Shown: positions 4,587 to 17,637 of the stretch, piece by piece
Position numbering within the stretch: the first letter of the stretch is position 1
Layout: the number at the start of each line of letters is the position of its first letter
DNA from: a virus
Lineage: Duplodnaviria > Heunggongvirae > Uroviricota > Caudoviricetes
DNA length: 17,637 nucleotides
Virus record (IMG/VR): IMGVR_UViG_2579778784_000009
Reading direction: 5' to 3' (one strand)
Translations under genes and position numbers: made by a program
The notes under the pieces: model-generated
Told to the model about the DNA's origin: nothing
Databases searched by the model: none
Seen by the model: only the letters and a program-made list of their open reading frames with translations

Positions 4587-4997
4587 TTAGTGATTCAGGC
4601 CGTTGCCGCGTCCGTCGAGAAAAACTTCCACGAGCAAGTCACGGGTATAAGTGCGCTCGATGCCGCGATGCAGATAAAGCCGTCCGCGTAAATTAGCTGA
4701 TGCAGTCCAGGTACCATCTTTGTGTTTGACCAGCATTCCTGGCATGACCGCACCGCGATTAACGGTCTGTGTTCCGTAATGTTGATGAACCATAAAAACT
4801 CCTGCCCGTAAGCTGGGCTGCTGAACATATAGAGACTTCTGCGCGTATTCAGGCGGTGGATGGCCGCCGGTTGTCATAACTAAACCGCCTCGTTGAAGCG
4901 ACTGAGGTATGAAATGTTGAGTTAATTTCAGCTGGTCACACCGACGTTCACGCGTCCGTTTCACCCCTCGCACTCCCCGAAGCCTGCTGAAATTCAA
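4587..4997 (-). CDS. Hypothetical protein at the first position of the pL operon; start uncertain
   Basis: 136-aa ORF whose track start is TTG. Internal ATGs at 4877 (GAGG upstream) and 4793 (GGAG 5 nt upstream). Arg-rich N-terminal stretch ([15 protein letters not shown]). Confidence 0.35.
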
Positions 4998-5065: not shown

Positions 5066-5127
5066 TGGTGATAATAGCTATTGCTATTGGTGATATCAAT
5101 ACTTATTGCTATTGGTTGATGTGTTTT
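5066..5127 (-). promoter_or_regulatory. OL/pL-like leftward promoter with operator repeats
   Basis: Minus strand -35 TTGATA (plus 5094-5099), 17-nt spacer, -10 TATTAT (plus 5071-5076). TTGCTATTGG repeated at 5081-5090 and 5106-5115; the same 9-mer recurs in the cI-cro intergenic region. Confidence 0.55.
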
Positions 5128-5242: not shown

Positions 5243-5268
5243 AAAACCCGGCACGGTGGCCGGGATTC
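5243..5268 (-). terminator. Putative intrinsic terminator ending the cI passenger operon
   Basis: Hairpin CCCGGC-ACGGTG-GCCGGG (5247-5264), followed on the minus strand by UUUUCUUUUG. Lies directly 3' of the ASCH gene stop. Confidence 0.5.
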
Positions 5269-5646
5269 TTACGCAGGTAGGTAAAGATATGATTGTGGTG
5301 GCTTAATATTACTACCTAGAGCAGAGATAGGAATTGGTTCTTTATATCTTTCCACTTCACCAATTTTTATTGCGTAGGCCTTTTCTCTACCTGAATAATA
5401 TGAGTCATAAAATTGCTTAGAAATACCTGCGTGCTTTTCCGTCTTTTTCCAAAGAGATTCCGGTTCGTCACTTAGTATTGATTCAATACGGAATTGACCA
5501 ACAACTTTACCTAATGGCATCGTGGCATAAATAACAACGGTGCTAATTTGCGGATTTTTGAATATACCTTTACGAAACTCGAACCGCTTTGTTCCGTTCA
5601 ATATTTTTTCTGCAAACTCAGGCTTAATGGATAATAAAACTTTCAT
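5269..5646 (-). CDS. ASCH-domain (PUA-like fold) protein, 125 aa
   Basis: N-terminus MKVLLSIKPEFAEKILNGTKRFEFRK fits the ASCH pattern. AT-rich. Overlaps the 3' end of the upstream gene by 23 nt. Confidence 0.7.
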   Translation of the reverse strand: MKVLLSIKPEFAEKILNGTKRFEFRKGIFKNPQISTVVIYATMPLGKVVGQFRIESILSDEPESLWKKTEKHAGISKQFYDSYYSGREKAYAIKIGEVERYKEPIPISALGSNIKPPQSYLYLPA

Positions 5647-6685
5647 TTATCTTGCCTAACTCGATGATCTTTAAGAACTGCTCATTTGTGAGTTTAAAGT
5701 GACTCCATCGGAATGCACGCGAACCATTTAGCCCCACATGATCTATTAAAATAGCACGATTGGGTCTCTTTGGCAAAGACAGATTGTATGTGAATCTTAT
5801 AATGAAAGGGTATCGACGTTCTTTATAGATTTTTCTGAGTTCATCTTCAGAAAATACGCTAAAACGAATACAATAGTCTACAAAACTATCTTCGCTTAAA
5901 AATTCAGAAATATTTTTTACGCTCTCAACTACACATAATGTACTGGCTACAGAACGATAGCGAGCTGGCCCTTTTTTGTCTCCGGTTCTATAGATGACAA
6001 TGATATCTCCTCTTTTCATTCCCATCACAGAACGCATTCCACATATGTAAATTTTATGAATGCTGTTAGCATGGGATATATCTTTGACAATATCTGGTGA
6101 TTCATTTACAAGTTTTGAATCAGGGAATAGTCTAGTGTGATATTCGGGATAAATCGCCAGTAAATATTTGTTGGCCCTTGATGTCATTATTCGAGGGTAA
6201 TCTAATAAAATATCACCATAAGGCTCATGCAAAGACCTCGCATATACAAACTCTTTCCCGTTATGTGTTTCTTTTTCACCATGAATGTAAAATCCGTACG
6301 TTTGGAAAAGTTTTATTAGATGGACGTGTTTGTCGAAAACAGTAACATAAATATCATCAGATTTTGATGAAAATGCATGGTCAAACGCTTTTTTTAGAAA
6401 TCGTTGTCCGCGAAGGGTGCCTTTAGATTCAAATTTGAATGTTCCTATCTTTAGATGACGTCCTGGTGGGAGCGCTGGATTAATGTCATTTGCATCATCA
6501 TTTTCTTTTAGATACATAAAACCTTCGATTTTATGCTTGTCATCATAGAGCACATAAGCTGATTCTCCTTCTCTGGCTTTTTTTTCTAACCAAAGAGGAA
6601 ACTCTTTATAATCTTTTTTTAAAGAGTCAAAAAATGGGTCATTGTGATCAAAATCAGAGAATTTCTCATATTTTAAAGTATCCAT
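5624..6685 (-). CDS. Uncharacterised protein (353 aa from ATG 6685; ORF extends to 6697) with GNAT-like N-terminal features
   Basis: Long AT-rich ORF. GGAG lies 6 nt before the second ATG. N-terminal half has the GNAT-like motif FQTYGFYIHGE. C-terminal half is unassigned. Confidence 0.7.
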   Translation of the reverse strand: MDTLKYEKFSDFDHNDPFFDSLKKDYKEFPLWLEKKAREGESAYVLYDDKHKIEGFMYLKENDDANDINPALPPGRHLKIGTFKFESKGTLRGQRFLKKAFDHAFSSKSDDIYVTVFDKHVHLIKLFQTYGFYIHGEKETHNGKEFVYARSLHEPYGDILLDYPRIMTSRANKYLLAIYPEYHTRLFPDSKLVNESPDIVKDISHANSIHKIYICGMRSVMGMKRGDIIVIYRTGDKKGPARYRSVASTLCVVESVKNISEFLSEDSFVDYCIRFSVFSEDELRKIYKERRYPFIIRFTYNLSLPKRPNRAILIDHVGLNGSRAFRWSHFKLTNEQFLKIIELGKINESFIIH

Positions 6686-6765
6686 TAAGTTCTCCATTCT
6701 AAAATGAATAATTAAGTTGTTTTACTGAATGAGCACAATGCCCGGTTGATAATTTTTAATTGGTA

Positions 6766-7458
6766 CTATCCATGCTTCCTATACGTCTGCGGCATGCTCC
6801 CAATAACTTTCCCGAAGATAAATACCCGGTTCATCTCATCTTTCTCGATCGGGTCCCACGGTGAGTAGCTTTTGTTATCAGAGATAACCAGCAGCTTATC
6901 CTTCATCATTTGCAGGCGCTTTACATGGGCTGTGTCGTCGTACAGAAACGCATAGATACCATCACCGTCGAAAGATTTAACCGTGATATCAACGAATAGA
7001 AGATCACCAGGTTCAATCGTTCCTGACATGCTGTCACCGCGTACGTTAATGATGCGGATATTTTCTGCCTTCCTACCATCGAACATGTGACGAGCATCGT
7101 CAAACGAGTACTCAACCGAGCGTAGAACTTCTACAAACTCACGGTTGATGACTCCCGGCCCGGCACTCACTTCTATATCAAGAACGTCAATTTTAAAGTA
7201 TTTGGAATAGCTGACAGCAGGCTTCCCTGATTGTTGACCGTCATTTCTCATCGGGCCTATGCCTGATGAGAGCCATTCTGTTCGAACACCCAATGCATTA
7301 GCTATTTCAACAATTTTTGTTGAGCCGCGCGCGTTGCCGCTTGTCAGTCTCCAGATTGTGGGTTGAGCTACGCCAGACGCCTTTGCAAGAGCGCCTTGAG
7401 ACATTCCAGATTGTTCCATCGCTAGGTTTAAGCGATCAGCAAGAGTTTCTTTTTTCAT
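6766..7458 (-). CDS. cI: CI-type prophage repressor (HTH plus S24 LexA-like peptidase domain)
   Basis: N-terminal HTH (SQGALAKASGVAQPTIWRL) and C-terminal VRGDSMSGTIEPGDLLFVD...VKRL (Ser/Lys dyad). Track start at 7494 is TTG. ATG at 7458 has no RBS and lies about 10 nt from a TATAAA, so the mRNA is probably leaderless like lambda cI from pRM. Confidence 0.85.
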   Translation of the reverse strand: MKKETLADRLNLAMEQSGMSQGALAKASGVAQPTIWRLTSGNARGSTKIVEIANALGVRTEWLSSGIGPMRNDGQQSGKPAVSYSKYFKIDVLDIEVSAGPGVINREFVEVLRSVEYSFDDARHMFDGRKAENIRIINVRGDSMSGTIEPGDLLFVDITVKSFDGDGIYAFLYDDTAHVKRLQMMKDKLLVISDNKSYSPWDPIEKDEMNRVFIFGKVIGSMPQTYRKHG

Positions 7459-7568
7459 AAGTTTTAATTTATACGCTTGCGTATTGATGGTCAAAACACG
7501 TTTTGCTATTGCTTGGATTAATACGCATTGCTATTATTTATTCATTGCAATACCAATAGGAATTGATA
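7459..7568. promoter_or_regulatory. OR-like divergent control region (pR, pRM, operators)
   Basis: Plus strand pR: -35 TTGCTT (7509-7514), 17-nt spacer, -10 TATTAT (7532-7537). TTGCTATTG at 7503, TTGCTATTA at 7528, related CATTGCAATA at 7544. Lies between divergent cI and cro. Confidence 0.6.
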
Positions 7569-10170: not shown

Positions 10171-10599
10171 TTATTTAGACAAACTATCTAATTTTTGCGT
10201 CGCTTTTTGTGTTAGGTCGCTGTAACTGATAAACCCTACGTTAGCACCTACAATTAACACTAAGAACACTAAGCTGCATATGGATAGAGTGGCAGATTTA
10301 TGCTTATGGAAAACAAAATATGCTACTATTGCACTTAATATGAAGGAAATGAATAGAAATATAGATGTTGATGTTTTTAGATATTTTTCAGGAAATAATG
10401 GGTGAGCAATAATGTATACAAGATTAAGTAGTATATAAATTGCTACCGGAATGAAAATCATGCTCCAGTGTGTATCTTTTTTGGGAGGGATTGGCTGCAA
10501 ATAATCAGACACCGTTTTTCCATCAGTTTCAAGAAGAATTACTAGATCTCTTACTTCACCACTGACTTGAGTGCCATCCTTAGTAGTAATGTTAATCAT
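10171..10599 (-). CDS. Small membrane protein (142 aa from ATG 10599), three predicted TM helices
   Basis: GGAGGG RBS 5 nt upstream of the ATG. Hydrophobic segments IFIPVAIYILLNLVYIIA, IFLFISFILSAIVAYFVF and LSICSLVFLVLIVGANVGFI. Very AT-rich. ATGA overlap with the upstream gene. Confidence 0.6.
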   Translation of the reverse strand: MINITTKDGTQVSGEVRDLVILLETDGKTVSDYLQPIPPKKDTHWSMIFIPVAIYILLNLVYIIAHPLFPEKYLKTSTSIFLFISFILSAIVAYFVFHKHKSATLSICSLVFLVLIVGANVGFISYSDLTQKATQKLDSLSK

Positions 10600-10973
10600 T
10601 TTTTCCCTCCAAATACGATTCCCTCTACGTCTTTGGAAGCTTTTTGTGATGACCACTCCTCTGAATCAGGTGATTTAATTAAAAATATTGTATCTCCATC
10701 AAAAATCGTATTTGTTCCGTAAAAATTTACATTTGATAGATCACCACCAAAAACCCTCTGCCCACTCGAGGTAATTGCCTCACCTAATTTAGTAAAATTA
10801 CCTGCAATAGATGATTTTCTTTTTCCACTTCTATTCAAAGTGGCTTTAATTACACCACCACCATCCTTAGAGTTAAATAATTGAATGTCCACTCCAGCAG
10901 TTGGTTGTATATATTTTGAAAGCTCTTTCTTGAACTTGTTAATATATTTATCTTTGTTTTCTTTGTTGGTCAT
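10596..10973 (-). CDS. Hypothetical Lys/Gly-rich soluble protein (125 aa)
   Basis: ATG at 10973. Translationally coupled to the membrane protein gene. AT-rich, antisense to the early-right operon. Confidence 0.6.
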   Translation of the reverse strand: MTNKENKDKYINKFKKELSKYIQPTAGVDIQLFNSKDGGGVIKATLNRSGKRKSSIAGNFTKLGEAITSSGQRVFGGDLSNVNFYGTNTIFDGDTIFLIKSPDSEEWSSQKASKDVEGIVFGGKK

Positions 10974-13302: not shown

Positions 13303-14385
13303 TTAGAACTGATAAACCAGACCTACAGCGACGATGTCGTCGGTATCAATACCAGCTGTTTTGGTAAACTTACTATCGTCAATTAAGTTGATTTTGTAAT
13401 CAACAAAAGTGGACATGTTTTTATTAAAGTAGTAAGTAGCACCGACATCGACATACTTGACTAAGTCTCGGTCACCATGAACACCAAGGTCTTTACCTTT
13501 TGACTGAAGGTAAGCAACAGATGGACGCAGACCGAAGTCAAACTGATATTGTGCTACTGCTTCAAAGTTTTGTGCTTTGTTTGCAATATGGTTATTACCA
13601 AAAACGGTCATATTCTGAGTTTCAGAATATGTGGTAGCCAGATAGATATTGTTCGCATCATATTTCAGGCCTGCAGCCCATACTTCCGCATTTTTGCCGG
13701 AGGCATTGAATTTGCTCTTACCATAGGCGACCTGACCGTCAGTGCGATCTGATTTAGCATAGGTTGCACCCACGCCGAATCCTTCATACTCATAAGTAGT
13801 GGAGAAACCGAAACCATCACCATTGGCTTCAGTTACGTCAGTGCGGTCATTTTTACCCTGATACTGAGCAGCAAAGTTCAGGCCATCGACCAGACCAAAG
13901 AAGTCGTTGTTACGATAAGTTGCAACACCAGTAGTGCGACCAGTCATGAACACATCTGTTTGGGTCCAGGTATCACCACCGAATTCTGGCAGAACGTCAG
14001 TCCACGCACCGATGTCGTATGCTACACCGTAGTTACGGCCGTAATCGATTGAGCCGTAATCACCAAATTTCAGGCCTGCAAATGCAAGACGGGTTTTGTC
14101 TTTGGAAGAACCTTGAGATTCAGCACGGTTGCCTTTGAATTCATATTCCCACTGACCGAAACCAGTCAGTTGATCGTTGATTTGGGTTTCACCTTTGAAG
14201 CCAAGACGGGCATAAGTAGTATCACCATCATCTGCATCATTAGAGGAGAAGTAGTGCTTGGCATTAACTTTCCCGTATAGATCCAGCTTGTTACTGTCTT
14301 TATTATAAATTTCAGCTGCCTGAGCAGACATCGCCATCAGTACTGATGCAGCTACAGCAGAAATTGCCACTGTTAATTTTTTCAT
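13303..14385 (-). CDS. nmpC: OmpC-family porin, NmpC/Lc type (phage-borne)
   Basis: Signal peptide [23 protein letters not shown], then [16 protein letters not shown]...VGLVYQF, a classic general porin. The track ORF has a spurious 20-aa N-terminal extension. Confidence 0.9.

Positions 14386-15189: not shown

Positions 15190-17637
<2,448 letters not shown>

Follow-up and report, generated by a model that had tools for sequence, protein, structure and literature searches.

The 17,637-nucleotide (nt) stretch of DNA described here (IMG/VR virus record IMGVR_UViG_2579778784_000009) belongs to a lambdoid Escherichia coli prophage integrated beside icd, and contains a pair of overlapping genes, referred to here as T and A, that form the subject of this analysis. 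The whole stretch is called the window, and all coordinates are window positions with the strand in parentheses. T codes for a large protein with a GNAT domain and A for a small ASCH protein. The window is 100% identical to several chromosomes of extraintestinal pathogenic E. coli and 99.9% identical to phages Lambda_4C10, 4A7, D2, 1W and 3W, and the prophage genes are arranged in the order int-xis-...-exo-bet-gam-kil-A-T-cI-cro(YdaS-like)-YdaT-O-P-nin region-Q-porin-lysis. The G+C content falls to 0.36 across the T-A pair compared with about 0.5 in the flanks, a drop that is typical of an acquired cassette. The pair and its parts are located as follows.

5624..6685 (-): T gene (GevT-like; PADLOC PDC-M11A), 353 amino acids (aa), a GNAT and PUA-like fusion, with its stop codon at 5624-5626
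6230..6685 (-): GNAT acyltransferase domain of T, residues 1-152
5627..6193 (-): C-terminal PUA-like (EVE/ASCH-type) domain of T, residues 165-353
5269..5646 (-): A gene (GevA-like; PADLOC PDC-M11B), 125 aa, a ZmASCH-type ASCH protein
5624..5646 (-): out-of-frame overlap of the T stop and the A start (23 nt, translational coupling), read from the sequence
6692..6695 (-): Shine-Dalgarno GGAG, 6 nt 5' of the T start codon, read from the sequence

The T open reading frame spans 5624..6697, and the ATG at 6685 is taken as the true start because of the Shine-Dalgarno site and the lengths of the homologues (350–357 aa), giving the 353 aa product.

A survey of one genome per species identified 80 loci with a T relative, at 45–74% identity, distributed among Proteobacteria, Bacteroidota, Firmicutes, Acidobacteriota, Verrucomicrobiota and Campylobacterota; the whole T family comprises 1,421 clusters at 50% identity. 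Several aspects of these loci bear on the relationship between the two genes. First, co-occurrence, which a preliminary description of this DNA had left to a survey of gene neighborhoods, is strict: an ASCH gene accompanies T at all 80 loci, directly downstream on the same strand in 77 and nearby but convergent in the other three. Second, the overlap between T and A is exactly 23 nt in 72 of the 77 same-strand loci. Third, the identities of the T and A proteins are correlated (r = 0.59). Fourth, identity to the window proteins averages 54.9% for A and 51.6% for T, with A the more conserved of the two at 58 of the 80 loci; on these comparisons the conservation of A equals or exceeds that of T, something not usually seen in a simple type II antitoxin. 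Finally, the T relative P0186 is a PIN-GNAT-EVE-ASCH fusion of the Rosetta-stone type, whose C-terminal ASCH domain matches the profile of the free ASCH proteins with an E value of 8e-36. The pairing of T and A is real, strongly conserved and strictly co-inherited.

Relatives of T with fused PIN or TIR domains also exist, and the window represents the minimal two-gene form. Among them is P0124, a 532-aa TIR-GNAT-EVE fusion (Pfam TIR_2, E 2e-13), and some relatives of approximately 615 aa carry a YqfB/PH0355-like ASCH domain at the N-terminus. Docking of ASCH on T, as deduced from a model of a natural ASCH-PIN-GNAT-PUA fusion, was considered and rejected, since the model has a predicted local distance difference test score (pLDDT) of 86 but a predicted template modeling score (pTM) of only 0.62, which makes the domain packing unreliable; the N-terminal ASCH of this fusion is also of the other, YqfB/PH0355-like subfamily.

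Searches of Pfam and NCBIfam with T alone returned nothing significant, and its fold was therefore taken from structure prediction and profile searches; T also matches PHROG 6345 (E 1e-186). An AlphaFold2 model built with 34 homologues has a pLDDT of 86.9 and a pTM of 0.84, and shows a complete GNAT topology in residues 1–152. This domain matches PaiA with coenzyme A (CoA) in a Foldseek search (E 6e-7), and a profile of 48 T sequences finds PaiA by sequence alone (E 8e-4), in an alignment that spans the beta4-alpha3 CoA loop. Two T relatives, P0124 and P0142, pass Pfam Acetyltransf_1. The GNAT fold that the preliminary description had assigned from a motif is thus borne out. As to the acetyl-CoA site, the loop lies in the expected place between beta4 and alpha3 but reads K88-G-T-L-R-G93 where the consensus is Q/R-x-x-G-x-G/A, with G93 its only near-invariant residue and with T90 and R92 conserved among close homologues. 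A cofactor site is plausible in the model. Residues W32, E61, K79, K84, Y113, G131 and E145 of the GNAT domain are invariant in the family.

Residues 165–353 of T constitute a second domain, PUA-like, that escaped the preliminary description. Profile–profile comparison of this domain with the free ASCH partner gives an E value of 2.8e-4 over 110 columns, and the two share the motifs LLSIKPEF / LLAIYPEYH and VIYAT / VIYRT, which include the tyrosine equivalent to Tyr47 of the Zymomonas mobilis protein ZmASCH. At the level of sequence, A is a remote paralogue of T's own C-terminal domain. Bell et al. (2020; PMC7641849) class such C-terminal domains as EVE; the PUA-like nature of the domain is confirmed here, and the narrower EVE class rests on Bell et al. 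The domain has no Pfam EVE match and, in the searches made here, is structurally closest to ZmASCH, not to a solved EVE protein.

The A protein matches Pfam ASCH above threshold (E 2.5e-8), and its closest solved relative is ZmASCH (PDB 5GUS/5GUQ; for 5GUS E 8e-16, over residues 3–123), in agreement with the ASCH fold claimed for it previously. On this homology, which is full-length, A is assigned to the ZmASCH type. ZmASCH binds single-stranded nucleic acids and cleaves single-stranded RNA in vitro, for which it needs Tyr47, Lys53 and Ser128; acidic catalytic residues are absent from it. Conservation was counted over 82 partner proteins of other species. Tyr47 of ZmASCH corresponds to Y40 of A (present in 82 of 82) and Ser128 to S119 (81 of 82); Lys53 aligns with G46, and the adjacent K47 is K or R in 69. 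Residues P9, K20, E23, R25, Y40, P44, W66, G74, Y83, A92 and P117 are invariant in all 82 proteins, and Q118, S119 and Y122 are each conserved in 81. In its sequence pattern this invariant pocket looks like an enzyme or ligand site. ZmASCH itself is a solo gene, and the use of its biochemistry as evidence from the same system was rejected since its upstream neighbor, encoding 375 aa, is unrelated to T; as ZmASCH is not encoded beside a GNAT-EVE gene, its RNase activity may not transfer to A.

The preliminary description had also raised the possibility that A acts as an eraser in the manner of YqfB, an N4-acetylcytidine amidohydrolase that uses a Thr24-Lys21-Glu74 catalytic triad, with Thr24 as the nucleophile, and Arg26 as oxyanion hole. 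The YqfB sequence was checked against 1TE7 and then aligned to the A family. Both proteins have the ASCH fold and a GxKxxExR-type motif, in which K21 and R26 of YqfB correspond to K20 and R25 of A. However, the Thr24 nucleophile is replaced by Glu23, a glutamate in 82 of 82 proteins, Glu74 has no alignable counterpart, and hhalign detects no homology outside the motif (probability 1.3%). A YqfB-type eraser role for A is therefore rejected on its catalytic residues.

The position of the pair within the cI operon, similar to that of lambda rexAB, is the second feature missed previously. The elements that define it are the following.

6766..7458 (-): cI-type repressor (HTH_3 and Peptidase_S24; Pfam, with RefSeq and GenBank annotation), directly upstream of T
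5247..5264 (-): strong intrinsic terminator, CCCGGC-ACCGTG-GCCGGG with a T run after it, 5 nt past the A stop (terminator scan and sequence)
5071..5115 (-): putative PL promoter TTGATA-17-TATTAT (5099->5071) between two exact CCAATAGCAATA operator-like repeats (OL), from the promoter scan

The cI stop codon is at 6766 and the T start lies about 80 nt beyond it, with no terminator-like site found in the gap by the terminator scan. Because T-A lies directly past cI without an intervening terminator, co-transcription with cI in lysogens is presumed; the layout is observed, and from it we infer that cI, T and A presumably form one transcript in lysogens, with cI first, closed by the 5247-5264 terminator. 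The putative PL, which lies just past this terminator, scores best among the promoter-like sites of the region. An operator-like motif, CAATAGCAA(T/A)A, is present both at the putative OL/PL (5079-5115) and in the cI-cro gap (OR, 7501-7564), with seven copies observed and 1.8 expected, a number reached in none of 200 shuffles. These OL and OR sites putatively bound the immunity region of a YdaS/YdaT-type lambdoid phage, with the PL site as its left edge, and T-A sits inside this region between OL/PL and cI, the slot occupied by rexAB in lambda. There is little sign of a dedicated T-A promoter, as promoter-like matches are at chance level (eight found, 9.0 expected). Two such sites, at 5748-5776 (-) and 5631-5658 (-), fall within the 3'-terminal part of T ahead of the A start and by analogy with PLit for rexB could add an antitoxin transcript, with the reservation that matches of this kind are at chance level here.

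The association with repressor genes recurs in other prophages. The order repressor, T, A is also present in a Salmonella lambdoid prophage, and in P2/186-like prophages of Klebsiella, Dickeya and Aeromonas T-A lies between the repressor and int, again in the order repressor-T-A; of the 80 species loci, 12 have a cI-like gene upstream on the same strand. T-A has been captured repeatedly behind repressor genes, by prophage backbones unrelated to one another. Two other settings are of a different kind. In Vibrio cholerae, T-A and an AAA_17/18 gene lie between type I-F CRISPR-Cas/SNIPE and a SIR2 gene, and in Neorhizobium a distant T-A variant is situated beside a Type ISP restriction enzyme and a reverse transcriptase. 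This defense-island context is suggestive of an anti-phage role. The V. cholerae island (L002/L004, 1-11065) contains Csy2-Csy3-Csy4, a SNIPE/T5orf172 nuclease, the GNAT-EVE/ASCH/AAA_17-18 genes, umuDC and a 1,269-aa SIR2 protein.

Other genes accompany the pair less regularly. An AAA_17-like gene is present at approximately 14 of the 80 loci, and a membrane-anchored protein of about 335–358 aa at 10 of the 80, and also at Klebsiella, Dickeya and Haemophilus loci. The latter (L092:3909-4976, L086:3893-4969, L095:3987-4991 and, among the 10 species loci, for example L011:4876-5976) is unannotated, has a hydrophobic C-terminal tail and no Pfam or PADLOC match, and varies in position and orientation beside T-A. 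The window lacks this protein, which may serve as a third component that is optional, or as a membrane effector. In an Aeromonas P2-like prophage (L090:4234-4986), a 250-aa TIR-like protein is encoded directly upstream of T (PADLOC TIR effector, E 2e-7).

Two sources provide hints to function. A 2026 transposon-sequencing (Tn-seq) study of prophage #1 of Dickeya dadantii 3937 found the ASCH gene Dda3937_01763 and the CI repressor gene 01765 to be essential; the acetyltransferase is missing from the essential set. Two proteins of strain 3937 with consecutive accessions, the ASCH protein ADM97071 and the 'GNAT family acetyltransferase' ADM97072, fall in the same 90% clusters as the T-A pair found between CI and int in a sister strain. 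When the ASCH partner is essential and the enzyme beside it dispensable, the pattern is the one classically expected of an antitoxin. The second source is E. coli, where T-A is present in 275 of 5,426 complete genomes, including the O157:H7 and ST131 lineages, as well as in viable temperate phages. A accompanies T in every one of the 275 genomes and is never interrupted. T, in contrast, is disrupted by IS1 in E138 (NZ_AP022351) and by IS5 in MSI001 (NZ_CP076645), and has single-nucleotide indels in NZ_CM142675 and NZ_CP053245 (SCU-485); the A gene of SCU-485 has also diverged, with 98% identity and a 3-nt change in length. Strains with such natural T knock-outs would be useful as natural controls.

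The window contains additional features outside the pair. A second low-G+C (0.36) overlapping gene pair is located between P and the nin region, the position of lambda ren, at 10171-10973 (-). Both genes are hypothetical proteins in RefSeq without a PADLOC match, the first with only a sub-threshold 7TM-type Pfam match, and the pair may be another moron or exclusion cassette. RefSeq annotation of an identical chromosome places an OmpC-like porin gene at 13303-14385 (-), an Iss/Bor serum-survival lipoprotein gene at 16176-16469 (-) and a TonB-family protein gene at 16950-17276 (+), which are further lysogenic-conversion genes of the prophage. In the kil region, a 136-aa open reading frame with a TTG start at 4587-4997 (-) is probably over-extended; RefSeq has a 68-aa Kil-type cell-division inhibitor at 4587-4793, and GenBank PV340567 a 128-aa Kil.

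Taken as a whole, it is likely that T-A is a TA-like (toxin–antitoxin-like) module. Our overall preference, held with somewhat more caution, is that it is a TA-like lysogenic-conversion cassette, probably an abortive-infection module expressed in lysogens; as to an anti-phage role as such, the case for and the case against are about evenly balanced. The reading of the two proteins as toxin and partner, as the preliminary description had it, agrees with the GevT/GevA labels, an earlier TA prediction and the Dickeya Tn-seq data, and survives without its two more specific components, the YqfB-type eraser and the link to the classical aminoacyl-tRNA-acetylating GNAT family. In the mechanism that we propose, T would use acetyl-CoA to acetylate a target brought to the active site by its PUA-like domain, and this acetylation would arrest growth. 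The target would most likely be RNA (tRNA or aminoacyl-tRNA) or a modified base, and we regard its being linked to RNA or tRNA as a doubtful proposition. A would keep T harmless in the uninfected lysogen, and would compete for, shield or process the same nucleic-acid ligand as T, with direct A-T binding as the alternative. Neutralization at the level of the substrate is favored over a protein plug because A is conserved at least as well as T and because residues with which ZmASCH binds nucleic acid lie in the invariant pocket of A, and we consider it possible rather than probable. A superinfecting phage would upset this balance, upon which T would stop the cell and the infection would be aborted, as with RexAB from the same slot. 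A more specific version, which seems to us rather improbable, is that T is a nucleic-acid acetyltransferase whose PUA-like domain picks a base or RNA that the GNAT domain then acetylates (e.g. giving N4-acetylcytidine, or with a hypermodified base as the substrate), with A occupying, shielding or processing the same site.

Several observations weigh against the abortive-infection reading. The literature located contains no experimental paper on T-A toxicity, rescue or phage defense; the PADLOC PDC systems are defense candidates only, and PDC-M11 was still a 'phage defense candidate' in a preprint of July 2026. Use of the Dickeya data rests on our own, indirect mapping of Dda3937_01763 to ADM97071. 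The asymmetry of disruptions in E. coli (four in T, none in A) has the direction expected of a TA pair but falls short of significance, given the 3:1 ratio of T to A in length, the small number of events (four) and the clonality of many of the genomes. The acetyl-CoA loop of T departs from Q/RxxGxG/A, the nearest structures of its GNAT domain are N-terminal acetyltransferases, PaiA and RimI, and the known aminoacyl-tRNA-acetylating toxins are absent among the top structural matches listed. On the side of A, the sole biochemically studied relative, ZmASCH, has no adjacent GNAT-EVE gene. The covalent ASCH fusion P0186 is a single cluster representative that could be a frameshift artefact.

One other explanation is that T-A is a genuine TA system selected for prophage addiction or stabilization, its role being to kill or arrest any cell in which the prophage or its immunity region is lost or inactivated and not to keep out other phages. 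The embedding of the pair in repressor operons of several unrelated prophages, either beside cI or between cI and int, is what such a role would lead one to expect, as are the essentiality of the ASCH gene in a Dickeya lysogen and the absence of a defense phenotype from the literature found. Homologues in the non-prophage defense islands of V. cholerae (CRISPR-Cas/SNIPE-SIR2) and Neorhizobium (Type ISP, reverse transcriptase) speak against it, however, together with the relatives fused to TIR and PIN effector domains and the fact that a rexAB-type slot typically holds exclusion genes. We think addiction unlikely as the sole role, while noting that addiction and exclusion are compatible with each other. 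The Dickeya Tn-seq authors arrived at a quite different reading of their data, in which ASCH is an RNase that prevents virion production; in this form ASCH would be an endoribonuclease repressing the lytic transcripts of its own prophage and the acetyltransferase a separate passenger. The cleavage of single-stranded RNA by ZmASCH in vitro fits with this proposal, but ZmASCH lacks acidic catalytic residues and the mechanism of that activity is unsettled, and A acting alone leaves the constant presence of T unexplained: the genes are coupled at all 80 loci, including the non-prophage ones, with a 23-nt overlap and correlated divergence, and fused forms exist. We judge this explanation highly improbable.

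A further alternative is a base-acetylation system in which T is the writer and A and the PUA-like domain of T read, shield or remove the mark, with self-marking, counter-defense against restriction, or a DarTG-like reversible attack as its purpose. This idea has a history, in that Iyer et al. 2013, as summarized by Bell et al. 2020 (PMC7641849), proposed DNA-base acetylation, and Bell et al. suggested that GNAT-EVE might guard phages from restriction. It would account for the presence in one system of two modules with the PUA-like fold, which is known to read modified bases, and for a pocket in A with the appearance of an enzyme or ligand site; the YqfB/PH0355-like ASCH of some ~615-aa relatives is also in keeping with it, YqfB being an N4-acetylcytidine amidohydrolase. 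A itself, however, lacks the threonine nucleophile of YqfB (glutamate in 82 of 82) and any homology to it beyond GxKxxExR, and no base-acetylating GNAT is among the closest structures of T. Moreover, expression from a lysogenic repressor operon suits protection of the host better than counter-defense during lytic growth, and the essentiality of A argues that unopposed T is harmful. We consider such a system decidedly improbable.

The abortive-infection module that we prefer would be of interest beyond this prophage, as T-A occupies the lambda RexAB slot and the family is widespread over many bacterial phyla. A growth-arresting acetyltransferase guided by a PUA-like reader, if T is shown to be one, would represent a new effector logic for TA and abortive-infection biology, and would assign a function to a very widespread ASCH subfamily. 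Should the acetylated target be a base, T-A would be the first system of the immunity or TA kind to work by base acetylation, and its antitoxin would descend from a duplicated substrate-recognition module of the toxin.

The T-A system is not new, having already been predicted, catalogued (as PDC-M11) and named (GevT/GevA). Both proteins match the PADLOC PDC-M11 models over their full length (T, PDLC04419, E 2.1e-133; A, E 6.8e-52); other PDC-M11A models cover forms of ~444–501 aa with N-terminal extensions, in contrast to the minimal form in the window. The closest counterpart is in Escherichia phage PhiR47_2 (GenBank PV340567.1), which is 99.4% identical at the nucleotide level over the whole pair, has the order kil - A - T - cI - cro with genes of 1074 and 378 nt, and differs essentially in nothing at the sequence level; its annotation labels the pair 'GevT toxin' and 'GevA antitoxin', labels that are known as annotation only. 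At the level of class, Bell et al. 2020 (PMC7641849), after Iyer et al. 2013, described (PIN)-GNAT-EVE operons that nearly always encode an ASCH protein, predicted them to be toxin–antitoxin systems, none of which had then been characterized, and noted that the GNAT-EVE forms are prophage-borne in beta- and gamma-proteobacteria. T-A falls in this GNAT-EVE plus ASCH class, with its GNAT domain, fused C-terminal PUA-superfamily domain, adjoining ASCH gene in the same operon and prophage location, and differs in having neither a PIN domain nor an AAA_17 gene.

Resemblances to better known systems are more limited. The type II GNAT/ribbon-helix-helix (RHH) systems TacAT, AtaRT, KacAT and ItaRT likewise combine a GNAT-fold toxin with a small neutralizing protein, and acetyl-CoA-dependent arrest is the likely logic in common. 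However, their antitoxin is an RHH/DUF1778 DNA-binding protein encoded upstream of the toxin, whereas here it is an ASCH protein encoded downstream of T; T is also twice the size and carries the extra PUA-like domain, and domain, sequence and structure searches reveal no specific similarity of T to these toxins. The placement of T-A in this classical aminoacyl-tRNA-acetylating family, suggested in the preliminary description, consequently fails on antitoxin type and gene order. RexA/RexB of lambda provides the positional counterpart, as two genes directly past cI in the immunity region with a terminator before OL/PL, and it is this slot and expression logic that make T-A a candidate exclusion system expressed in lysogens. 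The two are not related in sequence or fold; unlike the membrane protein RexB, T and A are soluble and nucleic-acid-oriented, and there are no Pfam, PADLOC or NCBIfam Rex matches. DarTG is a mechanistic analogue only, in that a toxin possibly modifying nucleic acid is paired with a partner acting on the same nucleic acid; its folds and chemistry (ADP-ribosylation, macrodomain) are unrelated, and reversal of the T product by A is not indicated here. To what was previously known of these systems, the present analysis adds the paralogy of A and the C-terminal domain of T, the conservation of A together with the near-fixed 23-nt overlap, the repeated capture of the pair behind repressors, the rereading of the Dickeya Tn-seq data as antitoxin-type essentiality, the exclusion of a YqfB mechanism, and the recognition that ZmASCH lies outside such an operon.

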